Below are positions 1 through 56,134 of a DNA stretch of 64,000 nucleotides, piece after piece (the stretch's first letter is position 1; each line of letters opens with the position of its first letter). The stretch comes from Candidatus Nanoarchaeia archaeon. GTDB taxonomy: Archaea; Nanobdellota; Nanobdellia; Woesearchaeales; ARS49. The notes beneath the pieces were generated by a model. It was not told the origin of the DNA and did no database searches. It saw nothing but the letters and a program-made list of their open reading frames with translations. The translations under genes were made by a program, and so were the position numbers. The stretch spans positions 11,336 through 75,335 of the forward strand of contig JBGPOY010000002.1 of NCBI GenBank assembly GCA_041488275.1, written 5' to 3'.

Positions 1-2
1 CA

Positions 3-623
3 GTCCTGATTGTGGGCGCCGGGCTTGTGGGAGTCGAGCTCGCGGCGGAGTTGGCGGTCCACGGCAAAACAAAGGTGACGCTCGTCAGCAGCGGTCCTAC
101 TCTTTTGGAGCGCAACGAACCGAAATCGCAGCGCTATGCAGAAAAATTCCTACGCGCCCACGGCGTCACGCTCCTGTTCCGCGAGCTCGTGCACGCGAAA
201 GGCAAGGGGTTCATCACCGATTCAAAGAAAAAGCTCAAGGCGGATATGGCCTTCTTCTGCACCGGACTGATACCGAACTCGTCCGTGCTTCCGAAATCGG
301 TGGACGACCACAAGCGCGTCAGAGTCAACGAATTCCTGCAGGTTGAGGGCATGAAGAACGTCTTTGCCCCCGGCGACCTCAACAACGTGGTCGTCGAGAA
401 AACGGCGCAGAACGCCGAAATACAGGCGCGTCTCGCGGTGGACAACATCAAACGTCTGGAACACCGCCGCCCGCTCGTCGCGTATCGACCGAGAAAAACG
501 CCGCTCGTCATCAGTCTCGGACCGCGGGACGGCATTTTCGAAACGCGTTCGTTCGTCATCACGGGATTTATTCCTGCGTTGCTCAAGCGCGTGATTGAGT
601 TTCGGGAAATGAGAAAGTTCTAG
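3..623 (+). CDS. FAD/NAD(P)-dependent pyridine nucleotide-disulfide oxidoreductase (NDH-2-like), C-terminal part; 5' end outside window
   Basis: Frame is open from the window edge. Second Rossmann motif GAGLVGVELAAEL and FAPGD motif are typical of type II NADH dehydrogenase-like flavoproteins. Confidence 0.75.
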   Translation, partial: VLIVGAGLVGVELAAELAVHGKTKVTLVSSGPTLLERNEPKSQRYAEKFLRAHGVTLLFRELVHAKGKGFITDSKKKLKADMAFFCTGLIPNSSVLPKSVDDHKRVRVNEFLQVEGMKNVFAPGDLNNVVVEKTAQNAEIQARLAVDNIKRLEHRRPLVAYRPRKTPLVISLGPRDGIFETRSFVITGFIPALLKRVIEFREMRKF

Positions 624-662
624 TTCAGCAACAAAAGAATCTGCACTCTAGAAATGGATAAC

Positions 663-735
663 GCACCCGTCGACTATTCCGAGACCGCTCGGAAAGCCGC
701 CGGTTGCTAGCAGGTCAGGTTCGAGAACAGCGTGC
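663..735 (-). pseudogene. tRNA-Glu-derived remnant / tRNA-like branched hairpin
   Basis: 73 nt. 5' GCACGCTG vs GCACCTG, and GCGGCTTTCCGAGC vs GCGGCCTTTCGAGCC, of the adjacent tRNA-Glu. The 3' GACGGGTGCG repeats the tRNA 3' end. Contains hairpin TCCGAG-CGGT-CTCGGA. No T-loop or cloverleaf. Confidence 0.35.
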
Positions 736-753
736 ACACTACAACTCACAGAA

Positions 754-828
754 CGCACCCGGCGGGATTTGAACCCGCGTAAGCGGCTCGAAAGGCCGCT
801 ATCCTTGACCGGACTAGACGACAGGTGC
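754..828 (-). tRNA. tRNA-Glu (anticodon UUC)
   Basis: Manual cloverleaf: acceptor GCACCTG/CGGGTGC, anticodon stem GCGGC/GCCGC with loop CTTTCGA, T arm GCGGG-TTCAAAT-CCCGC, discriminator G. No encoded CCA. Confidence 0.9.
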
Positions 829-853
829 AATGATCGTTTGCTTGTGCGCATGG

Positions 854-906
854 TGCGCTCGTCGGTTCTCAGAGACGCCGGTCTCGGGAACCGCCTTCGC
901 TCACGA
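854..906 (-). repeat. tRNA-Gly trailer (TCGTGAGCGAAG) + hairpin + direct repeat of tRNA-Gly 3' end
   Basis: CCGACGAGCGCA at 854-865 matches the tRNA 3' end CCGCCGAGCGCA (907-918) at 11/12. Hairpin CGGTTC..GAGAC-CGGC-GTCTC..GAACCG lies between them. Confidence 0.5.
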
Positions 907-977
907 TGCGCTCGGCGGGAATTGAACCCGCGTCTCAGCCTTGGCAAGGCCGTATTCTACCACTAAACCACGAGCGC
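907..977 (-). tRNA. tRNA-Gly (anticodon GCC)
   Basis: Manual cloverleaf: acceptor GCGCTCG/CGAGCGC, D loop AGTGGTA, anticodon loop TTGCCAA, T arm GCGGG-TTCAATT-CCCGC, discriminator A. Confidence 0.9.
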
Positions 978-1046
978 GAACTTCTGAGTTGTCGAGGAGG
1001 CGTATTTAAAGATATCTGAGAAGGAAAGAAAAAAAGAAAGAAGAGA

Positions 1047-3476
1047 TTACGTCCAGGACGGGTTGTTGGTGTCGAACGGGCAGAAGCAGTCGTTCGACGT
1101 CAGCGTCTGTCGGACGCGTCCGGAGAGCGGTCCGTTGTAAATCCACACGGAGCAGCTCGTTGCCGTCTGCCGCAGGACGCCGTCGTTGCCTCCGATGCAG
1201 CCGACCAAGTTGTCCGCGATGCTGGGCTGTCCCCACGCGGCGCGGGCTTCCTGCGCCATCGTCAGCGTGTACGTCGCGCTCTGGCCGGGAGTTCCCTTCG
1301 GAGCGCAGTCAAAGTAGTTCTGTCCCACTCCGTTGCTGTGCACGACGGAGCACGTTCCTCCCGGGCAGTTCGCCGGGACTCCGGGCGGGCACGGCGAGAC
1401 GCAGGCGCCGTTCGTGCAGCTGAATCCGTTCGGACACACGAGGTTGCACTGTCCGCAGTTGAAGTTCGTGTTCAGCTGCGTTTCACAGCCGTCGCCGAGC
1501 TGGTGGTCGCAGTCGCTGAATCCCGGGTTGCACACGCCGACCGTGCACGCGCCGTTGGAGCACGTGCTCACGCCGTTGAATACAGGGGGGCACGCGTTGT
1601 TGCAGCCGCCGCAATTGTTGAGGTCGGTGAAGAGGTTAATCTTGCACGGCTGTGACTGTCCGCACGTCGCGGAGCCGTACGGGCACGCGATGGGCGTGTG
1701 CTGGCAGCCGGTCTGCCGGTCGCAGCTGTCGGCGGTGTTCGGGTCGTTGTCATTGCACGAAACCGCGGTGTTGAAGCAGCCGTAGGCGGCGTCGCATCCG
1801 TCGCTGGTGCACGCGTTTCCGTCGTCGCACGAGGCTGCGGTGGTGCTGGCGCAGACGCCTGACTGGCACCTGTCGAACGCAGTGCAGGGGCTGCCGTCAT
1901 CGCAGGCAGTGCCGTCGGAGGCAGCGGGGTTGGAGCACTGACCGGTTTGCGGGTCGCACGCGCCTGCCGCATGGCACGCGTCCGTGGACTGGCACACTAC
2001 AGGGGTTCTGCCGGTGCAAACTCCGTTCATCATGACGTCCGATTGCGTGCACGCGTTTCCGTCATTGCACGGCGTTCCGTCCTGAGGAATTATTTCGCAC
2101 GCGTCGCCGACGCCGTTGCCATCAGCGTCTCGCTGGTCGCTGTTCGCAACCGTCGGGCAGTTGTCCTGATTGTCCACGATTCCGTCGCCGTCCGCGTCAG
2201 CGTTGGCGCTGTGATGGCACAGTCCGCTCTGCTGGTCGCAGAGGTCGCTGGTTGACACGTCGCCGTCGTCGCAGTTGACTTGGTTGCTGCCCACGCAGAC
2301 GCCGTTCTGAATGGTGTCTGTTTGAGTGCATGCGCTTCCGTCATTGCAGGCAGAGCCTTCCGCGGGAGCTGCCGGGAAGTGGCTTTCAAGCGCAGCAACG
2401 CGGGCTTCAAGCGAGGCAATGCGCGCGTCCTGGTCCGATTGTCCTGCGCGGTAATCCGCGAGGGATACGAACGTGTCGGTGAGCTGGTCGAATTGGTGTT
2501 GAAGCGCAACGGTGAGCGTTTCGAGCGCGTCAAGCCGTGAGCCGTGGTCGGTCAGGATGGTTTGGAATCCGTCAATGACCAATTGGAATGCGTTGAGCTT
2601 GGCGTCAGACGCGTTTGCCTGCCCGCTGATGTCGACGACATAACCTTGGACTTTGGCGTACTCGTCGTGGTCGCTCTGCGCGTGGCTGCTTTGCGCGGCG
2701 GACGCGTTCGCGAGACCGCTCTGGATGTATTGGTCAAGGTCGCCGAGGCGCGCGTGGTCAATCTGGTGCGCCGAGATGTAGCCGTCAATTTGCGTTTGCA
2801 GCGTGGCGTCGCCGGACAGGCGGGCGGCGGCTTCGTTGTTGAGCATGCCGGTCAGGTCGCTGCGGACGAGGTTAATCATGTCCGTGAGTGCCTGCTTGGC
2901 GGCGTCAATCGAGCCCGCGCGCAACGCGGCTTCCGCCGCCGCTTTGAGGTCAGTGTACGCGTTTGCCGTCGTGAGAGTCGCGGCGTCGCCCGCGTCTGAG
3001 TATTGCCGGGCTGCCGTCAGTGTGCTGGAGTCTCCCGCAGCGCGGGCAGCAGTCTCGGCGTTGAGATTGTTTTGCAAGGTTGCGTCTGCGCTCTGCCGCG
3101 CGGCGCTTTCACTTGCAACGCTGGAATCGGTGTAGGATTTTGCTGAAGAAAGTCCGCTGGTGTCTCCCGCAACTCGCGCGGACGCTTCGTTATTGACATT
3201 CGTCTGGAGTGTGGCGTCGGCTGCCTGTCGGGCGGCGGTTTCCGCGGTCACGCTGTTTTTCGCGGCGGTGAGGTTGCCCTGCAGTCCGATGAGCGGCGGG
3301 TTGCAGTTCGCGATGCACGTCTGCCAGTTTGCCCACGCCGGAATTGCGGAGGGTTCGGCGCCGCACGCGGTGATGCAGTTTTGCCTGCCTTCGAGCGGAG
3401 CGGTGACGAACGTCGCTGCCGAAGCAACGGACGCGAGCAACAGGAATACGACGGCAAGAACGCTGAACTGTTTCAT
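1047..3476 (-). CDS. Large secreted fibrous, Cys-rich surface protein (signal peptide, Ala/Gln-rich fibre repeats, thrombospondin type-3-like Ca-binding repeats, CxDGNxCTxDxC repeats)
   Basis: Start taken at MKQFSVLAVVFLLLASVASAATF (signal-like). Repeats of the form ETAARQAADATLQTN; DADGDGIVDNQDNCPTVANSDQRDADGNGVGDAC; many C-DGN-C-T-D-C units. Confidence 0.8.
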   Translation of the reverse strand: MKQFSVLAVVFLLLASVASAATFVTAPLEGRQNCITACGAEPSAIPAWANWQTCIANCNPPLIGLQGNLTAAKNSVTAETAARQAADATLQTNVNNEASARVAGDTSGLSSAKSYTDSSVASESAARQSADATLQNNLNAETAARAAGDSSTLTAARQYSDAGDAATLTTANAYTDLKAAAEAALRAGSIDAAKQALTDMINLVRSDLTGMLNNEAAARLSGDATLQTQIDGYISAHQIDHARLGDLDQYIQSGLANASAAQSSHAQSDHDEYAKVQGYVVDISGQANASDAKLNAFQLVIDGFQTILTDHGSRLDALETLTVALQHQFDQLTDTFVSLADYRAGQSDQDARIASLEARVAALESHFPAAPAEGSACNDGSACTQTDTIQNGVCVGSNQVNCDDGDVSTSDLCDQQSGLCHHSANADADGDGIVDNQDNCPTVANSDQRDADGNGVGDACEIIPQDGTPCNDGNACTQSDVMMNGVCTGRTPVVCQSTDACHAAGACDPQTGQCSNPAASDGTACDDGSPCTAFDRCQSGVCASTTAASCDDGNACTSDGCDAAYGCFNTAVSCNDNDPNTADSCDRQTGCQHTPIACPYGSATCGQSQPCKINLFTDLNNCGGCNNACPPVFNGVSTCSNGACTVGVCNPGFSDCDHQLGDGCETQLNTNFNCGQCNLVCPNGFSCTNGACVSPCPPGVPANCPGGTCSVVHSNGVGQNYFDCAPKGTPGQSATYTLTMAQEARAAWGQPSIADNLVGCIGGNDGVLRQTATSCSVWIYNGPLSGRVRQTLTSNDCFCPFDTNNPSWT

Positions 3477-3622
3477 CGGACACCCCGCGAGCCGCACCGC
3501 TGCTCGTCAACACACTCTTTCACGACGCTCGTCGATGCGCCCGTCTATAAAAAGATTCACGATTACAAATGCTGTAACGCTCCCCCGCAACGTTTATATA
3601 ATGTCCTCACGAAAAACAGCGT

Positions 3623-3793
3623 ATGACCCTTACGAAGGATGAGAAGGCGTACGTCAAGGCCGTGATTGAGCGGGAATGGAAGCATCTCGCGACCGAAGAA
3701 TCGGTGCGCGAACGCAACAGCCCGCTGGCGTTCTTCGTCACGCAGGAAAACTACGAGCAGTTCGTCAAGGCGCTGCTCAAGAAACTGCAATGA
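3623..3793 (+). CDS. Small hypothetical protein (56 aa), translationally coupled to prefoldin alpha
   Basis: ATG 3623 lies about 25 nt downstream of TATA-like gtttatataat. Stop overlaps the pfdA start (ATGA). Below the ORF-track size cutoff; translated by hand as MTLTKDEKAYVKAVIEREWKHL... Confidence 0.45.
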   Translation: MTLTKDEKAYVKAVIEREWKHLATEESVRERNSPLAFFVTQENYEQFVKALLKKLQ

Positions 3794-9519: not shown

Positions 9520-9602
9520 GCAGGGATGCCGGAGTGGCTAACGGGCACGGCTTAGGACCGTGTGGCTCAGCGCCTTCGCAGGTTCGAATCCTGCTCCCTG
9601 CA
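9520..9602 (+). tRNA. tRNA-Leu (anticodon UAG), class II long variable arm
   Basis: Acceptor GCAGGGA/TCCCTGC, anticodon stem CACGG/CCGTG with loop CTTAGGA, T arm GCAGG-TTCGAAT-CCTGC, discriminator A. Confidence 0.9.
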
Positions 9603-12600: not shown

Positions 12601-12611
12601 ACAACCAACCA

Positions 12612-12636
12612 TTTTATTTTTCTTTTTTTTTATTTT
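12612..12636 (+). terminator. Oligo-T tract after the S-layer gene
   Basis: ttttatttttctttttttttatttt starts 12 nt after the stop codon. Confidence 0.5.
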
Positions 12637-12703
12637 CATCTTCTCGTCTTTTACTCATACCAACGACGACATGAATTCAGTCCATTGAGCTCTCCGGCTT
12701 TCT

Positions 12704-12766
12704 CCCAGGGGAGTTGGAAGTGGTTGCGTAATTCAGAAATGACTACCTACGACAATACTGCCTGGG
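12704..12766 (-). repeat. Palindromic intergenic repeat, copy A
   Basis: Contains ctacgacaatactgcc, the reverse complement of the 16-mer ggcagtattgtcgtag found in copies C and D. Outer arms cccagg/cctggg pair perfectly. Confidence 0.75.
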
Positions 12767-12840
12767 TACGGTAAACGTTTTCACGACGCACTAGACACGC
12801 TTGCGCGAGGTTTTTAACGGGCGTAGAACTCCTCTGACGC

Positions 12841-13653
12841 ATGTTGAGGGAGAGTTTTGTGCTGCTGCCGAAAGTGCGTCAGGCGACCGAGCAGCGCATT
12901 TGGGCGCAGGCGCCGGACTGGAACGCGTTTCTCGACCAAGCGCGCATCAAGGGGTTTTCGCCTTCGAGAAAGCGCGGCTGCGACCAACGCATCATTGAAG
13001 CAAAACGCGCCGTGCTCGCCGAAGACGCAGCCGCACTCGCATCATTATTCCCGCGCCGCGACCATTGGCGTCTCTACCAGGAATTCAAGCACGATGCCGC
13101 GTTCCTCGACATCGAGACGAGCGATTATCCGGGCGGCGTCACGGTTGTCGGCATCTGGAACGGCAACGAAACAAAAACCTTTGTCCAAGGCTTCAATCTC
13201 GACAGAGCAGCATTACAGAAAGAACTTGCCAACTACAAACTGTTAGTCACGTTCAACGGCGCCAGTTTTGACCTTCCTGTCCTGAAACGCTACTTCCAGC
13301 TCCCGTTCAATCAACCGCACGTCGACCTGCGTCACGTCTGCGCCAAGCTCGGTTTCGTCGGCGGGCTGAAATCCATCGAGCGAGAAATGCATGTCAAGCG
13401 TCCGGACAGCATCAAGCACGTGACGGGCGAAGACGCGGCGGAATTATGGCGTTGCTGGCACGCAACAGGAGACAAAGACTTCCTTGATATGCTCATTACG
13501 TACAATGAAGAGGACTGCGTGAACCTGAAAACCATCGCAGACAGACTTATCCCTGAACTTTGGCGAGCGACGCGCGCGAATTCTTTTCCCTACGCAAAAA
13601 ATCACTCTGAAATGAAAACAATCCTAGTTAATGAAAACCCTAGGTTGAGCTGA
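12841..13653 (+). CDS. RNase H-like 3'-5' exonuclease domain protein (YprB / PolB-exo-like)
   Basis: FLDIETS (ExoI-like), TFNGASFDLPVL (ExoII-like) and YNEEDC (ExoIII-like) motifs. Leaderless spacing from TATA-like ggtttttaac. Confidence 0.65.
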   Translation: MLRESFVLLPKVRQATEQRIWAQAPDWNAFLDQARIKGFSPSRKRGCDQRIIEAKRAVLAEDAAALASLFPRRDHWRLYQEFKHDAAFLDIETSDYPGGVTVVGIWNGNETKTFVQGFNLDRAALQKELANYKLLVTFNGASFDLPVLKRYFQLPFNQPHVDLRHVCAKLGFVGGLKSIEREMHVKRPDSIKHVTGEDAAELWRCWHATGDKDFLDMLITYNEEDCVNLKTIADRLIPELWRATRANSFPYAKNHSEMKTILVNENPRLS

Positions 13654-13676
13654 AGCAATCTTTATAAACCAATTTC

Positions 13677-13692
13677 ACTTTGTCGGTTGTGG
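13677..13692. promoter_or_regulatory. Candidate NrdR box 1 (weak)
   Basis: actttgtcggttgtgg matches about 9/16 of the recalled NrdR-box consensus acaCwAtATaTwGtgt. Centre is 33 bp from box 2. Confidence 0.25.
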
Positions 13693-13709
13693 TAGGAAAA
13701 GAGGTGAAA

Positions 13710-13725
13710 ACACAAGCTGTTGTGG
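13710..13725. promoter_or_regulatory. Candidate NrdR box 2
   Basis: acacaagctgttgtgg matches about 12/16 of the recalled consensus, with palindromic arms CACAA/TTGTG. Lies between TATA-like tttataaa (~13661) and the nrdR start. Confidence 0.35.
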
Positions 13726-13805
13726 TTTTCTCATCGACGGCATCGTCGGTGGCTCTTGAGCTCCTGACCCCTATCCCTTGTGGATACAAAGGAAGTTATG
13801 ACGCA

Positions 13806-14279
13806 ATGAAGTGCCCGTTTTGCCTGCATCAGGAAACAAAAGTGGTGGACTCGCGCGAGACCACCGACTTGGACGCAACCCGCAGAAGGCGGGAATGTCT
13901 TGACTGCAACAAGCGCTTCACCACCTATGAGCGCCTGGACACGATTGACCTCGCGGTCGTCAAGAAAGACGGCAGGAGAGAGCCGTTCAGCCGCGCAAAA
14001 CTGCTCCGCGGCTTGCTCAAGGCGTGCGAAAAGCGCCCCATCACGCGAGAAAAAGTGGACGACAGCGTCGCGGCCATTGAAGGATTGCTCAGAAAGTCCG
14101 ACAAGCAGGAGATTTCTTCCAAAAAAGTGGGCGAACTCGTGATGGCGCAATTGAAAACGCTCGACCAAGTCGCGTACGTCCGTTTCGCTTCCGTGTACCG
14201 AAGTTTCCGAGATATTTCCCAATTCGAAAAGGAGATCAAGCTCCTGAAACAAGACAAAACGTCAAAACAAGAAGCCTGA
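13806..14279 (+). CDS. nrdR: Transcriptional repressor NrdR (zinc ribbon + ATP-cone)
   Basis: MKCPFCLHQETKVVDSRETTDLDATRRRRECLDCNKRFTTYE, then an ATP-cone. Start taken at the internal Met of the track ORF. Confidence 0.92.
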   Translation: MKCPFCLHQETKVVDSRETTDLDATRRRRECLDCNKRFTTYERLDTIDLAVVKKDGRREPFSRAKLLRGLLKACEKRPITREKVDDSVAAIEGLLRKSDKQEISSKKVGELVMAQLKTLDQVAYVRFASVYRSFRDISQFEKEIKLLKQDKTSKQEA

Positions 14280-14289
14280 GGTGTAGATA

Positions 14290-17200
14290 ATGGTGCAATT
14301 GGTTACTGAGACAAATATGGGCAAGCCCGGATTGATCGTGCAGCGCAGGTTTACCCTGCCCGGCAAGAGCCCGTACGACATGCTCGATTACGAGAAACGT
14401 ACTTCAGTCATCAAGGAACCCGACGGCAGCATTGTTTTCGAGCTCAAGGATATTGAAGTCCCGAAGTCGTGGACACAATTGGCGACGGACATCGTCGCGT
14501 CGAAGTACTTCCGCAAGGCAGGCGTGCCCGGCACCGGCAACGAAGTCAGCGTGAAGCAAGTCGTTTACCGAATCGCGCACACCATCCGCTCCTTCGGCGA
14601 GGACCAGGGCTATTTCTCGTCGAAAGACGACGCCAACTCGTTCGAGGACGAACTCGCGTACATGCTCCTGACCCAGCGCGGCGCGTTCAACTCCCCTGTA
14701 TGGTTCAATTGCGGGTTGTTCCACCAGTACGGCATTTTGGGAAGCGCGGGCAATTTCGGTTGGAGTTTCCGCAGCAGCCAGATTGAAACGCTGCCGAACG
14801 CGTACGAGCGGCCGCAATGCTCGGCGTGCTTCATCCAATCCGTGCACGACGACATCCGCAGCATCTTCAACCTACTCAACCAGGAAGCCATCGTGTTCAA
14901 GTACGGCTCCGGCACGGGCAGCAACTTCAGCAAACTCCGAGCAGCGGGAGAAAAACTCTCGGGCGGCGGCACGTCCTCGGGAGTGATGAGCTTCCTCAAG
15001 ATTTTCGACACGGGAGCAGGCAGCATCAAGAGCGGCGGAACGACGCGCAGAGCTGCAAAGATGGTCGTGATGGACATCGACCACCCCGACATCCTGACCT
15101 TCATTGAATGGAAAGCCAAGGAAGAACAGAAAGCAAAACTCCTCATCGAGCACGGCGGATTTCCCGCCGACTTCAACGGCGAAGCGTACGCGACGGTTTC
15201 GGGGCAGAACTCGAACAACAGCGTCCGCATTACTGACGAGTTCATGAACGCCTATCTTTCCGGCGGCAAGTGGGCGACGACATGGAGGACGACCGGCAAG
15301 GTTGCGAAAGAATACGACGCCAAGTTCATGATGCGCAAAATCGCGGAAGCCGCGTGGGCGTGCGCAGACCCGGGCGTGCAGTACGACTCGACCGTCAACG
15401 ACTGGCACACTGCATCAAACACGGACAGAATCAACGCAAGCAACCCGTGCAGCGAGTACATGTTCCTCGACGACACGGCGTGCAACCTCGCCAGCATCAA
15501 CCTGATGAAGTTCACGAGCGACGACAACGCCTTCGACATCGAAGGATACCGCCACGCGTGCAGAACGTTCTTTATCGCGCAGGAAATCCTCGTCGACTTG
15601 TCGTCATATCCGACGAAGCCGATTGCGCAGAACAGCCACGACTACCGTACGCTCGGATTGGGCTACGCGAACTTGGGCACGATGCTGATGGTCAGCGGCA
15701 TCCCGTACGACTCGGAAAAGGGGCGAGCCATCGCAGGCGCGCTTACTGCAATCATGACCGGTCACGCGTATAAGACATCGGCTGAAATGTCCGCCGTCAA
15801 GGGACCGTTCCCCGGCTACGCAAAGAACAAGGAACCGTGCTTGCGCGTCATGAACAAGCACCGCGACGCGGCGTACAAGATTGACGTCCGCTTCTGTCCG
15901 TCCGACCTTTTGCGCGCCGCGCGAGAGGACTGGGACGACGCGGTTGCCGTCGGAGAAAAGCACGGCTACCGCAACGCGCAATCAACGGTCATCGCTCCGA
16001 CAGGAACGATTGGCTTGCTGATGGACTGCGACACGACCGGTGTCGAGCCCGAATTCGCGATTGTCAAGTGGAAGAAGCTCGCCGGCGGCGGCTACTTCAA
16101 GATTGTCAACCACAGCATCTTGCGCGCGTTGAACTCGCTTGGTTACAGCGAGGACGCGATGGGTGAAATTCTCGAATACGTGCTCGGGCACAACTCGTTC
16201 GAAGGAGCGCCTCACGTCTCGCCTGAAGCGCTGCGACGACTCGGCTTTACGGCAGAACAAGTCCGCGAAGCAGAAGAAAGCGTGCAGAAAGCCAAGACGT
16301 GGACGGACTGGACGCCGCACATCAACCCCAAGACGCTCATCAACAAGGGCTTGTCCAAGGAGCAGATTAGCGACGCCAAGATTTACATCGAAGGCGCGCA
16401 AACGCTCGAAGGCGCTCCCGGACTGAAGGAAGAGCACACCGCCGTGTTCGACTGCGCCAACGTGTGCGGCATCGGCAAGCGCTTTATCGCGCCGATGGGC
16501 CACATCAAGATGATGGCTGCCGTGCAGCCGTTTATCTCAGGAGCGATTTCGAAGACGGTCAACATGCCCAGCCAGACAACGGTCGAGGAAATCGAGATGA
16601 CGTACGTCGAGGGCTGGAAGCTCGGTCTGAAAGCGATTGCGCTGTACCGCGACGGATGCAAGGCATCTCAGCCGCTCAACACGAAGAGCGACGAAAAGAA
16701 GGCGGAAGCCATCACGGCGCCTATCGTTCAGGAATACAAGGGCTTGAAGCGCGGCGAAAAGCTCGCTTTGTCGACCAAGCGCAAGGGCGTCACGATTGAA
16801 GCCACCGTTTCAGGGCACAAGGTGTTCCTGCGAACGGGAGAGTACGACGACGGTAAGGTCGGAGAAATCTTCATCGACATGCACAAGGAAGGCGCGGCAT
16901 ACCGTTCGCTCGTGAACTGCTTCGCTATTGCCGTGTCAATCGGACTGCAGTACGGCGTTCCGCTGGAAAAGTTCGTGGAAAAATTCACGTTCACGCGGTT
17001 CGAGCCCAACGGCATGACCGACCACCCGAACATCCGCATGTGCACGTCGATTATCGACCTCGTGTTCCGCATCATGGGCTACGAGTACCTGGGCCGCACG
17101 GACTTTTTGCACGTGAAGCCGACCACGATGGACGAAGTCAAGGTCTCCGAAGGACCGGGACCCGTCGCATCGCAGGTCGATGTGCAGGCGCCGCTCACGA

Positions 17201-17361
17201 ACTTCGAGTCGCGCGTCTCCGACGACGTGATGGGCATGCAGCAGCAGATGGGCAAAATGATGGGCGACGCGCCCGCGTGCTCCAGCTGCGGCCACGTGAC
17301 GGTCAGAAACGGCTCGTGTTACAAGTGCTTGAACTGCGGCAACTCGATGGGTTGCAGCTGA
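14290..17361 (+). CDS. nrdJ: Adenosylcobalamin-dependent ribonucleotide reductase, long form (class II, NrdJ)
   Basis: Motifs [43 protein letters not shown]. C-terminal Cys-rich tail [21 protein letters not shown]. 11 nt after nrdR. Confidence 0.93.
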   Translation: [1023 protein letters not shown]

Positions 17362-17371
17362 TTTTTTCTTT

Positions 17372-17482
17372 ATGATTTCCCTTTTTGGTAAGCGCGGGCA
17401 AGTGCAGTACATCATCTACGCGATTATGTTCTTTATCGTCGCGTTCCTGCTAATCTGGCTCGTCAAGAAAGTGACGCCGTGA
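17372..17482 (+). CDS. Possible 36-aa single-TM micropeptide
   Basis: Hand translation MISLFGKRGQVQYIIYAIMFFIVAFLLIWLVKKVTP. Stop overlaps the GTG start of the next gene (GTGA). Confidence 0.3.
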   Translation: MISLFGKRGQVQYIIYAIMFFIVAFLLIWLVKKVTP

Positions 17483-25773: not shown

Positions 25774-26376
25774 TTACAGCTTGCGCATCTTGTCCATGCC
25801 GAGGTTCTTGATGAGCTTGTTCGGCTCGCTCCAGTCGATGTTTTGGAAGAACGCGTCGATGTATTTCTTGCGTCCGGTGGCGTAGTCGAGGAAGTAGGCG
25901 TGCTCGTACACGTCCAGCACGAGCAGCGGCGAGCAGTGCCACACGCCGCCTTGGTTGTGCACGTCTGCGATGTAGTTGTGGAGCTTGCCTTCGCGCCAGT
26001 CCATCGCGAGCACGACCCAGCCGCGGGCGCACAATCCGAGCGCGCGGAATTCAGCTTCCCACTTTTCGTAAGAACCGAAGTCCTGCTCAATCAGTTTCAG
26101 TATCGCGCCGCCTGCTTTTCCGCCCTTGCCGCCGAGGTTGTCAAAGTAGCATTCATGCAGGCGAACGCCGTTCGCGGCAAAAGTCTCTTCGACTTTCAAC
26201 TCGCGCAAGTCCGAGAACGTGCCGTTCGCGGTGGACAAATCGACGGTGCTTGCCTTCTGGCGAATCTCATCCAACTTCTTGCAGTAGCCTGCGTAGAGAA
26301 CGTCGTGATGTTCGGAAAGTTGTCTCTCAGAAAGGCCGGGTAATGACTTGTATTTCAACGGTTTGACTTCGGGCAT
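25774..26376 (-). CDS. sod: Fe/Mn superoxide dismutase
   Basis: HHDVLYAGY (HHxxHH-region equivalent) and LDVYEHAYFLDY motifs. Start at MPEVKP, preceded by GAGGTGG. Confidence 0.85.
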   Translation of the reverse strand: MPEVKPLKYKSLPGLSERQLSEHHDVLYAGYCKKLDEIRQKASTVDLSTANGTFSDLRELKVEETFAANGVRLHECYFDNLGGKGGKAGGAILKLIEQDFGSYEKWEAEFRALGLCARGWVVLAMDWREGKLHNYIADVHNQGGVWHCSPLLVLDVYEHAYFLDYATGRKKYIDAFFQNIDWSEPNKLIKNLGMDKMRKL

Positions 26377-29569: not shown

Positions 29570-29600
29570 ATTCTCTGCGTTCGTCGTAAACCATGAGGCA

Positions 29601-29659
29601 CCGGCCGTCTGGTCCGTCGTCGAATTCAGCGATGACGACGTACGTCAATACTGCCTAGG
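29601..29659 (-). repeat. Palindromic intergenic repeat, copy B
   Basis: acgtcaatactgcc is one mismatch from the family core. Shares the 13-mer catgaggcaccgg (29592-29604) with copy C. Contains the perfect palindrome ctgcctaggcag. Confidence 0.7.
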
Positions 29660-29691
29660 CAGACTGAGCGGAGAGCTCGTGAGTTCCAACG

Positions 29692-33252: not shown

Positions 33253-33677
33253 TGTTCGAGAACGTGACGTGGGGATTCGGCGTCTGGGCACTCGTCGGCA
33301 TTTTGCTTAGCGCCGTGATGCTGACCGTCACTTCACGCCTCTTCCGTTCGAAGGAGCGCAGGTTCGGTGTCGCCTTGCTGGTTGCGGGCGGTTCGGTGTT
33401 CGTGTATGCGTTCGCCGCAGCCGCAGTCGCTATCGTGAAAGCGGCGCTCGGGACGATTGTTTCTCTTTTTGCTTTTGTTTTAGTCGCGATAATTTACATC
33501 GCAGTTGTCTGCTGGTTCGTCAAGAAAGCGTTCAAGGTCGGCTGGCTTCGCGCGTTCCTGATGTTCCTCATCTGGATGCTCTTGAGCTTCGGCGTGAGCG
33601 TGCTGGTCTGGCTGTTCTTCATCGTGTTCTTTGTCGGAACCAAACTCGCGGGCGGCAGCGGGATTTTGATTCGGTAA
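33252..33677 (+). CDS. Hypothetical 4-TM membrane protein
   Basis: TGATG overlap with the upstream gene. Hydrophobic throughout. Confidence 0.55.
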   Translation: MFENVTWGFGVWALVGILLSAVMLTVTSRLFRSKERRFGVALLVAGGSVFVYAFAAAAVAIVKAALGTIVSLFAFVLVAIIYIAVVCWFVKKAFKVGWLRAFLMFLIWMLLSFGVSVLVWLFFIVFFVGTKLAGGSGILIR

Positions 33678-33724
33678 GCACGCCGCCAAGATGCGAGCGA
33701 GGCAGCAGATGACTCGTTTCCGTG

Positions 33725-33782
33725 CCCAGGCAGTATTGTCGTAGCGTCAGGAATTGCACAGCGAACGACCAGACTGCCGGTG
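33725..33782 (+). repeat. Palindromic intergenic repeat, copy C
   Basis: ggcagtattgtcgt (33729-33742) pairs 12/14 with acgaccagactgcc (33765-33778). The 16-mer ggcagtattgtcgtag is identical in A (reverse complement) and D. Confidence 0.8.
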
Positions 33783-33864
33783 CCTCATGTTGCGGCGACG
33801 AACCTGGCGTTTTGTTCGTAACCTTTAAATACCCTGTTCTATTCGCTTCTACTCGGGGGTAACA

Positions 33865-39312: not shown

Positions 39313-39903
39313 GTGAACGAATATCCCTCACACTTCTGCATGCTCGAGTCCCTGCGCCCGCGCGTCACGCGCGACGCGCTGGTCTGCCCGCTCATCGGCG
39401 AACTGCACAAGACGGACGACGAGTTTCCCTTCGTCACGATGCTTGCCGCCGACCGCGTGTACGACAAGGAATACTCCCGATTCGCAGGCTGGACCCGCCG
39501 GTTGGCGGACCGCATTCTCGCGTCAGGAACCGAGGCTGCGCTGCGCGCCAGCCACGTGGTCAACGCGTACGAACTCATCTGGCAGGGGCTCTACGGGCAG
39601 GATACGGAAATCGTGAAAGAACTCATTGAGTATTTCGGGACGTTTCGGAGGCTGCACGTGCTGCTCTACGACCAAACTGCGAACGCGGACATTCCGCAGA
39701 CCGTCAATCACGTCGTGAAACTCCACGTTCCCGAGCACTCCCTGCAGTTTTTCCACGGCGGCGAGATGGCGGTCGCCAAGTCCATCCCGCTGGAACAGAT
39801 TGTCGGCATCTATTCGCGCAACCCCGCCATCGCGATGCAGCAGCTCGCGGCTTTGGACGCGGAGATTGCGGTCCTGCCGTTCCCTGATAAGGCGAACGCC
39901 TGA
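39313..39903 (+). CDS. Hypothetical protein
   Basis: 196-aa ORF with GTG start preceded by GGAGG. No family recognised. Confidence 0.55.
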   Translation: MNEYPSHFCMLESLRPRVTRDALVCPLIGELHKTDDEFPFVTMLAADRVYDKEYSRFAGWTRRLADRILASGTEAALRASHVVNAYELIWQGLYGQDTEIVKELIEYFGTFRRLHVLLYDQTANADIPQTVNHVVKLHVPEHSLQFFHGGEMAVAKSIPLEQIVGIYSRNPAIAMQQLAALDAEIAVLPFPDKANA

Positions 39904-42495: not shown

Positions 42496-42570
42496 CTCGC
42501 GGTTATGCTGTTTTTCTGTGCCGTCAGCCGTGCCCTGCAGCGTTCGACAAATTGTTCGCGGTTTGTCATG

Positions 42571-49984: not shown

Positions 49985-50093
49985 TTTTTCTCACTTTCGG
50001 ATAGTATACAATCCTTTTATACGCTGTTCGGAATGACTCCATCATGACCTTGTCAAAGGGCTACCCCGCGTTCCTGAGTCCACGCTCGCGCGT

Positions 50094-50156
50094 CCCCGGC
50101 AGTATTGTCGTAGGCAGTCAATCTGATACGTACGACGAACGACCAAACTGCCTGGG
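50094..50156 (+). repeat. Palindromic intergenic repeat, copy D
   Basis: ggcagtattgtcgt (50098-50111) pairs 12/14 with acgaccaaactgcc (50139-50152). Outer ccccgg/cctggg. Ends 34 nt upstream of the GT3 gene start. Confidence 0.8.
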
Positions 50157-50189
50157 AAGCAGCGTGCGCTCTCAGCACGGAGGCGCGTA

Positions 50190-53833: not shown

Positions 53834-55093
53834 ATGCACATCAAGAACGCAGCACAGGTAGGAACGTCTCCCGCATCGCGTGCGTGCGTGAAAATCCTGA
53901 ACGCAGGCCTGGACGCCGTTGACCCGGAACGCGCGCTCCGCGAAGCGATTTCAGTGCAAGGGAACGTGCTGCGCATCGGGACGTTTTCATGCTACTCTCA
54001 CCAGTTCCGCCGCATCATCGTTGTCGGTGCGGGAAAGGCGTCGGGTATCATGGCCTCTGTTGTTGAAAAGATTCTCGGCAATCGCATCACGAAAGGCAAA
54101 GTGATTGACATCACGGCGCGCACGCTGAAACGCATTACGGTCGTCGCGGGCGACCATCCGGTACCTTCGCCCAACAATGTCGCGCACACCAAGAGCATCC
54201 TGCGCATGACAAAAGGTCTGCGCGAAGACGACCTCGTCCTGTGCCTGATTTCCGGCGGCGGCAGCGCGCTTTTTACCGACCCGCGCATCCCGCTTGCCCA
54301 GTATCTTCCGCTCACGAAACGTTTGCTGAAGAGCGGCGCGACCATTCAGGAGTTCAACACGGTGCGCAAGCACCTTGACGGCGTCAAGGGCGGGAGGTTC
54401 GCGGCGCACTGCGCTCCCGCAACCGTCGTTTCGCTGCTGGTGTCAGACGTGCCCGGGAACGATCCCGCGGTCATCGCCAGCGGTCCGACGGTGCACGACC
54501 CGACGACGATTCGCGACGCGCAGCAGATTCTCGCGAAGTACAGCCTGCCGCAGGTGCCCGTGTCCGAAACGCCGAAAGAGGCGAAGTTCTTCAGGCACGT
54601 GCACAACCAAGTCGTCATCGACAATACGCGCGCCGTGAACGCGATGGTCGTCGAAGCCAAGAAACTCAAGCTCAAGACGATTATTCTTTCGACAGAACTG
54701 ACGGGAGAAGCGCGCGACACGGGAAAGAAACTGCTCGCGAAACTCAAGCCGCGCACGGCGGTGATTGCCGCGGGCGAAACGACCGTCACGGTGCGCGGCA
54801 CCGGTAAAGGCGGGCGCAATCAGGAGCTCGTGCTGGGCAGCATCCGCGAGCTGGCGAAAATGAAAAACACCGCGCTCGCGTCCATCGGCACGGACGGCAT
54901 TGACAATTCCCCTCACGCAGGCGCGATTGCGGACACCATGACATTCACACGCGCGCAGCAGCTCAAGCTCGATGACAAAGCGTTCCTGAAAGACAACAAC
55001 TCCTTCGTGTTCTGGCAAAAACTCAAAAAAGCGGTCATTACGGGTCCGACGGGGACCAATGTGTCTGACGTGATGCTCGCGGTCCGGCTTTAA
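53834..55093 (+). CDS. Glycerate 2-kinase (DUF4147 + MOFRL family)
   Basis: VVGAGKASGIMA and AGETTVTVRGTGKGGRNQE motifs. Leaderless spacing from gtttttaaatgc. Confidence 0.85.
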   Translation: MHIKNAAQVGTSPASRACVKILNAGLDAVDPERALREAISVQGNVLRIGTFSCYSHQFRRIIVVGAGKASGIMASVVEKILGNRITKGKVIDITARTLKRITVVAGDHPVPSPNNVAHTKSILRMTKGLREDDLVLCLISGGGSALFTDPRIPLAQYLPLTKRLLKSGATIQEFNTVRKHLDGVKGGRFAAHCAPATVVSLLVSDVPGNDPAVIASGPTVHDPTTIRDAQQILAKYSLPQVPVSETPKEAKFFRHVHNQVVIDNTRAVNAMVVEAKKLKLKTIILSTELTGEARDTGKKLLAKLKPRTAVIAAGETTVTVRGTGKGGRNQELVLGSIRELAKMKNTALASIGTDGIDNSPHAGAIADTMTFTRAQQLKLDDKAFLKDNNSFVFWQKLKKAVITGPTGTNVSDVMLAVRL

Positions 55094-55725
55094 TTCGCTT
55101 TAAGCGATTGCAGCGCGTCAAATTCCGCTGCGCTCAACGGTTCTTTGTATAATTCCTGCTCGAGCCAGAGCCCGCTTTCGCGGATTTTCTGTTTTGGAGA
55201 ATGGAGACCGAGCCAATTTGATGAGGGCTCGCACGCGGCGCAGTGCGAGAGTGTTGAAATGATGCGCGATTCGAACAATTTTCTTTGCGCGGGGTCGTCG
55301 ACCTGCACGACGACAAAACTAAAAGAATTTTGCAGGCGCTTGCTGACGTGCTGCTCTGTCGTTTCCTGCTTCTTGAAATCAATGCTCGCCGAGTGCTTTT
55401 CCTTTGCGTCTTTGGTCGTCAAGTCGAGTTCCCATTGCGCAAGAAACGGGTCGTTGTCTTTCGCGAGCAGCGCGCGTCCGATATTTTTGCGAAAGATGCT
55501 GCGGTCCTTGTTTTCGTTCTCGAAATGCTGCCACAGCCGCGAGCGCAGCTGGTCCTTGCCCGTGTGGGTTCCGACGCGGACAATGCGCCGCGCGCCGTGA
55601 CCGGTTTCGCCGTGCTCGAACAGCAGATAGATGCCGTTCAGCGGAATGTCCTTGTTGTTGAACGGAAACGTGAACGCGGGCAGCTGGTTCGCCCACCGGT
55701 GCAGCGCGTTGCAGAGGTCAGCCAT
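55090..55725 (-). CDS. GIY-YIG-like nuclease domain protein
   Basis: NGIYLLFE...IVRVGTH...LRSRLWQH...LFESRIISTL fits a GIY / YIG / R / E pattern. By-eye assignment only. Confidence 0.55.
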   Translation of the reverse strand: MADLCNALHRWANQLPAFTFPFNNKDIPLNGIYLLFEHGETGHGARRIVRVGTHTGKDQLRSRLWQHFENENKDRSIFRKNIGRALLAKDNDPFLAQWELDLTTKDAKEKHSASIDFKKQETTEQHVSKRLQNSFSFVVVQVDDPAQRKLFESRIISTLSHCAACEPSSNWLGLHSPKQKIRESGLWLEQELYKEPLSAAEFDALQSLKAN

Positions 55726-56134
55726 GGAGTTTCCCCTTCAAAAACTGCAGCTGCTTGCCGATGCCGAGCCCGCGCATCGGGACCGTGACGTGGCTTAGGT
55801 GAGCGAGCAGGTACTTGCGGTAGTTTTCGCCGGCGAGAAAGACGACTTCGTCGTCGCGCATGTTGATATGCGTTCTCAGCTGCTGCGCAACGCGGTCTGC
55901 CCACGCCTTTTTCTCGCGTTCGGGCATTGCGTTCAGGGTTTGGTCGTACGGCTCAATCTCGTCGTTGAGCGCAATCAGGCCGTACTTTGCCGAAAGAATG
56001 AAAATGTCGCGCGGCTTGAGCGTTTTCGCGTAGGCGAGGTTGAACTTGAACAGCGTGCTCGTGTACAAGTCCTGCGCGCGAGCCTTTCGGGCGAGCTTTT
56101 TGCTCACGCACGATAGCAGCACCACCCGTTCCAT
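55718..56134 (-). CDS. Conserved uncharacterised protein (recalled as DUF6884-like; unverified)
   Basis: VVLLSCVSKK..DLYTSTLFKFNLAYAK...IFILSAKYGLI..DEIEPYD.TLN.....K.WA..V...L.....FLAG..Y...L......P..GLGIGKQLQFLK. 8-nt overlap with the GIY-YIG gene. Confidence 0.6.
   Translation of the reverse strand: MERVVLLSCVSKKLARKARAQDLYTSTLFKFNLAYAKTLKPRDIFILSAKYGLIALNDEIEPYDQTLNAMPEREKKAWADRVAQQLRTHINMRDDEVVFLAGENYRKYLLAHLSHVTVPMRGLGIGKQLQFLKGKLHG

Follow-up and report, generated by a model that had tools for sequence, protein, structure and literature searches.

Small intergenic hairpin repeats in a Woesearchaeota genome: a probable lineage-specific family of non-autonomous MITE/foldback-type elements

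Repeat copies in the window and their neighbours

The window, a stretch of 64,000 nt, belongs to a Woesearchaeota (DPANN) archaeon. The flanking genes are archaeal and include those for an S-layer protein (PF05124), ribosomal protein S27e, Nop10 and eIF2-alpha, with promoters of the BRE/TATA type, and the glycogen synthase and the RNR have their best named relatives in Candidatus Woesearchaeota. From position 26156 onward, JGI contig Ga0534153_0000248 and Logan contigs have the same sequence as the window, and a 100% identical RNR is encoded on a 158-kb NCBI contig.

The flagged locus, copy C, sits downstream of the stop codon at 33677 and upstream of the following gene's TATA box (33819), and is one of four related palindromes (copies A to D, Table 1). 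Copy A is located between the stop of the S-layer gene (12600) and the start of a nuclease gene (12841), copy B begins directly after the RNR stop (29569), and copy D lies between a TATA-like box and the ATG of the glycogen synthase gene (50190). This box, which is conserved in relatives, places copy D within the 5′ untranslated leader. The initial annotation had described the repeats as strictly intergenic, which is true of all four. Through a family profile search (nhmmer), copies A to D were recovered with E ~1e-12 to 1e-17.

Table 1. Repeat copies and the glycogen synthase TATA-like box in the window
Feature	Position	Strand	Hairpin	Remarks
Copy A	12687..12790	-	12704-12766	nhmmer E=1.9e-16; CM match at 12704-12766
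Copy B	29570..29678	-	29599-29659	nhmmer E=7e-12
Copy C (flagged locus)	33713..33812	+	33725-33782	nhmmer E=1.5e-13; hairpin z=-2.8
Copy D	50071..50189	+	50094-50156	nhmmer E=4e-14; z=-2.8
TATA-like box CCTTTTATACG	50013..50023	+		glycogen synthase promoter; conserved in relatives

A 16-mer, GGCAGTATTGTCGTAG, had been reported from three of the copies, and we located it exactly at 33729-33744 (+), 50098-50113 (+) and 12747-12762 (-); the version in copy B (29640-29655, -) differs by 2 mismatches over the 16 nt. With up to 3 mismatches allowed, there were 5 matches in the window against 0.37 expected, and 0 of 100 shuffles reached 5. The fifth match, at 39666-39681 (3 mismatches), was rejected as chance, its flanks containing no other family features. 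An unguided repeat search returned the same four loci as the best inverted and direct pairs (27-37 nt, 84-93% identity), with common stretches of 28 nt between A and C (93%), 27 nt between A and D (93%), 28 nt between B and C (89%) and 37 nt between A and B (84%). The B/C stretch includes the previously noted 13-mer (29592-29604 and 33777-33789), and the extension of the core shared by A and C was found as claimed. The mosaic flanks were also present, CCGGAGAGCTC in A corresponding to GAGCTCTCCGC in B in inverted order, and this flank motif belongs to a tail motif that is conserved in relatives. The peptides HEAPAVWS and RQYCLG, described as echoes of the repeat, occur in the frames crossing B and C.

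The similarity of the four intergenic palindromes lies far above chance, confirming the family that had been proposed. It is hardly conceivable that chance, low complexity or an assembly artefact is behind it: no shuffle matched the observed 16-mer count, the JGI and Logan assemblies are independent and identical in sequence, and the family was found again in contigs from unrelated samples, while nothing was found to support such an explanation. The four palindromes are genuine copies of one small non-coding family, probably of mobile DNA.

Several other features of the window were recorded. Long T-tracts (up to T9) at 12611-12640, directly after the S-layer gene stop, are likely the real terminator of this highly expressed gene. 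Three tRNA genes are located at 754-828, 907-977 (-) and 9520-9602 (+), and the 3′ part of the tRNA gene at 907-977 forms a 38-nt inverted repeat with that of the tRNA gene at 9520-9602. The open reading frame 1047-3497 (-) encodes a Cys-rich secreted-type protein with Dicty_CTDC and TSP_3 repeat matches, and contains internal coding repeats of 69-80 nt at 1719-2361. A pair of GIY-YIG_3 and DUF6884 genes occupies 55090-56134, between the MOFRL and enolase genes; the related loci L028 and L029 carry other genes at this place, indicating a small variable spot.

Structure and conservation of the element

In the following, copies named with K, L or M and one digit lie in related genomes, and three-digit L numbers denote loci. 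The full element unit is ~100-150 nt long and consists of a head, a hairpin and a tail; copy M2 fills a spacer of 148 nt, and copy D is an insert of 119 nt. No conserved ORF was found in the element. The hairpin is imperfect, 58-64 nt long, and has the form CCCAGGCAGTATTGTCGT...ACGACCAGACTGCCNGGG. On its 5′ side lies the head (consensus TTTaCCGT), of which the variants TTT(A)CCGT and TT(T)ACCGT adjoin the hairpin foot. Conservation is strong in the 5′ arm (CCCnGGCAGTATTGTCGT; consensus CCCnGGCAGTwTTGTCGT), with which the 3′ arm (ACGACCArACTGCCnGGG) forms pairs except at two fixed mismatches; the bulges are fixed as well. The tail has the consensus GCsGGAGAGC, often followed by TGTTT or TTTTC; in D this motif gives way to GGAGG.

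Copy A has the head ACGTTTACCGTA 5′ of the hairpin on the minus strand, a tail with CCGGAGAGCTC at 12687-12697, and a degenerate 3′ arm. The head of copy B contains the inverted tail motif GAGCTCTCCGC, and its tail reaches the RNR stop codon. In copy C the head TCGTTTCCGT and the tail GCGGCGACGA form an outer stem, and the arms pair at 12 of 14 positions, as had been counted before. Outer inverted motifs (GAGCTCTCCGC...GCAGAGAAT in B) are present only in some copies. The arms are inverted repeats of 20-25 nt, and the homology runs on outside them into the head and the tail. Through sequence inspection, the arm CCCAGGCAGTATTGTCGTAG was seen to be without an internal dyad. The tetranucleotide GTAG does not stand beside the palindrome, where the initial annotation had placed it, but within the 5′ arm, where it spans hairpin positions 17-20; it is kept in 5 of 15 family members, and the other ten have GTTG, GTCG, GTGT, GTAC or GTTA.

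The two arms are unequally conserved, the 5′ arm showing 74.8% identity (30.8 bits) and the 3′ arm 58.4% (23.1 bits), and the CM scored 79 bits on one strand versus 16 bits on the other. Pairing and covariation were computed from a hand-written structure with a subset of 11 sequences. In this subset 84.6% of the cells were paired, against 37-57% when the partner was slid, five pairs had changes on both sides, and the covariation score was 0.18 versus 0.127 in shuffles (reached by 5 of 500), showing that the hairpin is maintained, with some compensatory changes. RNAalifold returned no structure on the MAFFT alignment, because indels shift the 3′ arms out of register. The mean hairpin z-score was ~-1.9 over 15 copies. 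The mismatches in the arms comprised 10 G:T and 10 A:C, so no RNA strand is favoured; together with the kept pairing, this indicates that the structure matters but points to no single transcribed strand.

When hairpins from the same genome are compared, identity is ~61-63%, rising to a maximum of 81% in the subfamily pairs L1/M1 and M4/M5. The amplification was therefore not very recent, and the family is old and diversified instead of a recent burst.

Distribution in relatives and filled and empty sites

Relatives were reached through orthologous proteins and from these to the syntenic contigs, and more copies were found, as the initial annotation had suggested looking for. The L029/L036 lineage (glycogen synthase 74% and RNR 83% identical at the protein level) contained 11 copies in 43 kb, or 1 per 4 kb; ten of these gave nhmmer E values of 1e-13 to 1e-22 with a profile of 15 copies, and the eleventh, M6, is a partial copy (E ~0.3). 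The L028/L035 lineage (glycogen synthase 76%, RNR 83%) had one clear copy, K1 in L028. The window sequence CCGTGCCCTGCAGCGTTCG at 42528-42546 lies in the spacer that contains K1 in L028 and may be a decayed remnant of an insertion common to both; the alignment was unconvincing, and the relic was rejected. L037 (GCA_016203225.1; RNR 82%) showed a weak relic directly after the RNR stop (E=0.15-0.31). This locus also encodes, at 1-3750, a class II RNR of 1383 aa with an intein and a LAGLIDADG domain; the orthologue in the window (14290-17361, 1023 aa) is without the intein.

No copies were found in L033 (68%), in L032, or in three GTDB loci at 59-69%, all Woesearchaeota/Nanoarchaeia, that a protein-guided GTDB scan returned (0 of 3 with the element). 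A gapped two-arm pattern gave 0 matches in GTDB genomes. CCNNGGCAGTATTGTCGTAG gave 9 matches in JGI metagenomes, none with a further family feature, and the 16-mer gave 14 in IMG/VR, all in unrelated coding DNA. The single match of the two-arm pattern in IMG/VR, L041, was rejected for its 7.9 bits and its position inside open reading frames. Phage and plasmid collections contained no family match, and a CM built from the hairpins of the relatives recovered only its training copies and window copy A (E=0.22), with nothing new in L033 and L037-L040. As copies occur in few lineages and none in distant ones, the family is confined to a narrow group of Woesearchaeota, within which its density varies several-fold.

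Two weaker resemblances were noted in coding DNA. L026 contains, at 17419-17461, ~6.4 kb past the right end of the window, a stretch like the head and 5′ arm, TTTTCCGTGCCCGTGCAGTATGGTCGT, within the N-terminal part of a DUF192 gene; it was not significant (nhmmer E ~0.25). A conserved coding stretch of an ASCH gene, CCCAGGCCGTTTTGTCGTCG (L035 5069-5092, L036 3746-3771), resembles the 5′ arm with E of 0.002-0.03, probably by chance; in L036 this gene is directly followed by copy M2.

Every one of the 15 copies lies in intergenic DNA, which makes up only ~9% of L036, and each of the five longest L036 spacers contains a copy. Orientation relative to the neighbours varies: C, D, L1 and L3 are sense inside transcribed spacers, A, L2, M1, M2, M5 and K1 are antisense to both neighbours, L4, L5, M3 and M4 lie between divergent promoters, and B lies between convergent gene ends. 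Along L036 the orientation alternates (+,-,+,-,+). The position relative to the promoter also varies, C being upstream of a TATA box and D downstream of one, with L4, L5 and M3 also upstream of promoters.

Comparison of orthologous spacers revealed empty sites in relatives for B, C and D, and in the window for copies of the relatives. At site D the window has the 119-nt insert where L028 and L032 have 11 nt, and L033, with a total spacer of 31 nt, is also empty. Site B is empty in L035 and L036, where the RNR gene and the next gene abut; site C is empty in the same two loci, whose alignment to the window picks up only at the TATA box at 33819. Conversely, the spacers of the window and L035 are without the element at the M2 and M3 sites, and those of the window and L028 at the L5 site. 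In the window, the genes flanking L1, L3 and L4 overlap or are separated by ≤80 nt; L028 shows the same at L1 and L4. In total, at least nine sites hold the element in one lineage but not in others. No clear target-site duplication was found in the filled/empty comparisons of D, C, M2 and M3, in which the ends are not sharp at this divergence.

Only one spacer is clearly shared, the glycogen synthase leader, and its copies are in opposite orientation: the window copy is on the plus strand (49 vs 37 bits) and the L029 copy on the minus strand (59.5 vs 39 bits). This indicates independent insertions in the window and in the L029 lineage, and the coincidence needs no special cause, since ~25% of the spacers in the L029 lineage are filled. 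In its tail, copy D has GGAGG (50179-50183) 6 nt before the glycogen synthase ATG; the empty-site relatives have GGTGA and a GTG start at this gene. The D insertion apparently replaced the ribosome-binding region of glycogen synthase. Presence and absence could in principle come from loss instead of gain. The different positions in related genomes indicate repeated insertion (or loss) since the lineages split.

A segment with nrdR and the class II RNR gene (window 13562-16889) is inverted relative to L036 1-1500 and L035 1-3291. Copy M5 (L036 1405-1494) is located at this synteny breakpoint, and in the window copy A lies ~800 nt from the breakpoint; repeat copies may have recombined with each other here.

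Interpretation and comparison with known systems

We consider the family to be, probably, a non-coding and non-autonomous transposable element of MITE/foldback type that is specific to its lineage and REP-like but not REP. This agrees in one part with the candidate of mobile MITE/REP-like palindromes in the initial annotation: the mobile part was supported by filled and empty sites, by copies in both orientations and by the lack of an Rfam match, while the link to REP through GTAG/CTAC was not supported, the tetranucleotide being internal and unconserved and the arms not being palindromes. The kind of element is familiar and the family is new, with no membership in REP/REPIN, attC or Rfam.

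Mobilisation would occur in trans, by a transposase or recombinase whose gene lies elsewhere in the genome and which would recognise the hairpin arms; binding and cleavage by this putative enzyme may depend on the arm sequence and the mismatches, both of which are conserved. A protein-binding site, which had been proposed separately, is compatible with the mobile-element reading and would form part of it, the hairpin being where the mobilising enzyme would bind. Presumably only insertions into the scarce intergenic DNA are tolerated. As previously noted, no transposase is present in the window, and we found no transposase, HUH enzyme or recombinase in ~74 kb of this genome and ~130 kb of relatives; the annotated loci examined for a RAYT/TnpA-like gene contained no PF01797-type protein and no TnpB. 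The mobilising enzyme is therefore purely putative, none having been found in the ~200 kb examined. It may belong to the DDE-type cut-and-paste class or to the single-strand HUH/Y1 class, and our claim extends only to trans-mobilisation through the hairpin arms. Side effects on the host are also conceivable: the glycogen synthase leader would gain a strong hairpin from copy D, and in the L029 lineage from the corresponding copy, D may supply a new GGAGG ribosome-binding motif, and M2, L1 and L3 may have split genes that formerly overlapped or abutted.

Within this explanation falls, as a specific sub-case, an archaeal analogue of REP/REPIN or an IS200/IS605-derived (PATE-like) element, cut out and inserted in single-stranded hairpin form by a HUH/Y1 tyrosine transposase of RAYT/TnpA type with one gene copy in the genome. 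The imperfect hairpin with its conserved bulges and mismatches, the asymmetric arms evident in the CM scores, the compensatory changes that keep the pairing, the conserved 5′ flank TT(T)ACCGT beside the hairpin foot, and the lack of a detectable target-site duplication or clean terminal inverted repeat would all suit such an enzyme. We nevertheless regard it as unlikely, for the DNA examined contained no gene for Y1/HUH or TnpB, and the orientation alternates over short distances in L036, where a strand bias of the kind typical of IS200/IS605 would be expected. The tag GTAG/CGTC, by which REPs are defined (PMC3733652), is missing from the ends, and since neither arm is a palindrome in itself, the hairpin does not amount to a REP doublet. 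A fuller archaeal counterpart of REPIN-RAYT would comprise single-stranded DNA hairpins, a single-copy and vertically inherited HUH-type enzyme, subfamilies within a streamlined DPANN clade, and some co-opted copies, of which the hairpin and GGAGG leader of glycogen synthase would be an example. Arm asymmetry, fixed bulges, missing target duplications and persistence in at least three lineages make it compatible with the data, and we hold it to be quite improbable.

The initial annotation had also listed a 3′-UTR stability or termination structure and a small RNA family. A host-selected RNA module (3′-end stabiliser, terminator, 5′-leader regulator or small RNA), kept by selection and not by transposition, could explain why the hairpin is kept with some compensatory changes, why C, D, L1 and L3 are sense within transcribed spacers, why short T runs often end the tails, and why the glycogen synthase leader received a copy independently in two lineages. 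The stronger conservation of the 5′ arm could likewise reflect selection for a host function instead of transposition. We nonetheless find this reading very doubtful. About half of the copies (A, L2, M1, M2, M5 and K1) are antisense to both neighbours, C, L4, L5 and M3 are upstream of promoters, and G:U is not in excess over A:C (10 versus 10). Orthologous genes in relatives manage without the element, and the leader coincidence is expected by chance at the spacer occupancy of the L029 lineage. Rfam at gathering scores gave only 3 tRNAs in the window, and E-value scans gave nothing relevant in L036, nor in copies C and D even at E ≤10, so no Rfam family matches the element. Ahead of A and D, and independently of the element, strong T-tract terminators stand after the S-layer and ATPase stops, and no T-tract follows the RNR stop or the stop of the 141-aa gene within 120 nt; with half of the copies inverted, an intrinsic or archaeal terminator was rejected. 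The loop CTGA had suggested a C/D-box, H/ACA or K-turn sRNA, which was dismissed for having no C box or ACA box, no conservation in relatives and no Rfam match. A sigma-54 -24/-12 promoter, suggested by GGCAG...TTG, was discarded on its wrong spacing and the archaeal host.

Under the preferred reading of a MITE/foldback-type element, the family has some bearing on genome evolution in DPANN archaea, which have small and gene-dense genomes. The elements fill roughly a third of the intergenic DNA in one lineage and are 3-4 times rarer in another, indicating that transposable DNA can still expand in such genomes. The insertions in operons and 5′ leaders, together with the copy at the inversion breakpoint, make the family a marker of recent genome dynamics, and for annotation it accounts for the spurious ORF echoes and for unusually long spacers. 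It represents no new kind of biology, unless the mobilising enzyme proves unusual.

A REP is defined as a 20-40 nt palindrome that ends in a GTAG or CGTC tag (PMC3733652), and a REPIN combines two REPs in inverted order, both of them palindromic (Bertels & Rainey 2011, PMC3116915; Di Nocera et al. 2013, PMC3733652); the REPIN-RAYT systems described are bacterial (PMC3116915; PMC3733652). Our family resembles them as extragenic imperfect palindromes with conserved mismatches, in the hairpin size (~60-110 nt), in how densely copies can lie locally (1 per 4 kb in the L029 lineage), in the persistence in a clade of related genomes, and in that most copies are without a linked transposase. It differs in that GTAG is internal and found in only 5 of 15 copies, the arms are not palindromes, and the annotated loci contain no RAYT.

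Integron attC sites have been reported in archaea. They share with our elements the imperfect palindrome of ~60-140 nt, the extrahelical bases and the position just after stop codons. However, the elements have no RYYYAAC/GTTRRRY core sites at their ends, no cassette array and no integrase, and they occur in both orientations between syntenic housekeeping genes; by the absent R''/R' core sites, these neighbours and the missing integrase, attC was ruled out. Miniature elements derived from IS200/IS605 (PATEs) occur in haloarchaea and cyanobacteria, and have two separate subterminal hairpins with strand and target-tetranucleotide specificity. They provide an archaeal precedent in which imperfect hairpins are recognised and neither terminal inverted repeats nor target duplications are needed, whereas the family described here has one central hairpin and no detectable strand bias.

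The closest comparison is with prokaryotic foldback MITEs, such as the Correia elements of Neisseria and the archaeal MITEs of Sulfolobus and haloarchaea, which are under ~300-500 bp in size. Our family departs from these in its asymmetric head and tail beyond the inverted repeat, in the better conservation of the 5′ arm, and in that no target-site duplication was shown and ~200 kb contained no parent insertion sequence whose ends match. In common with them, it is 100-150 nt long, non-coding, multi-copy and intergenic, lies in either orientation and has arms that fold into a long hairpin; it also shows presence and absence between related genomes and mosaic subfamilies, and can land between a promoter and a start codon or inside operons.
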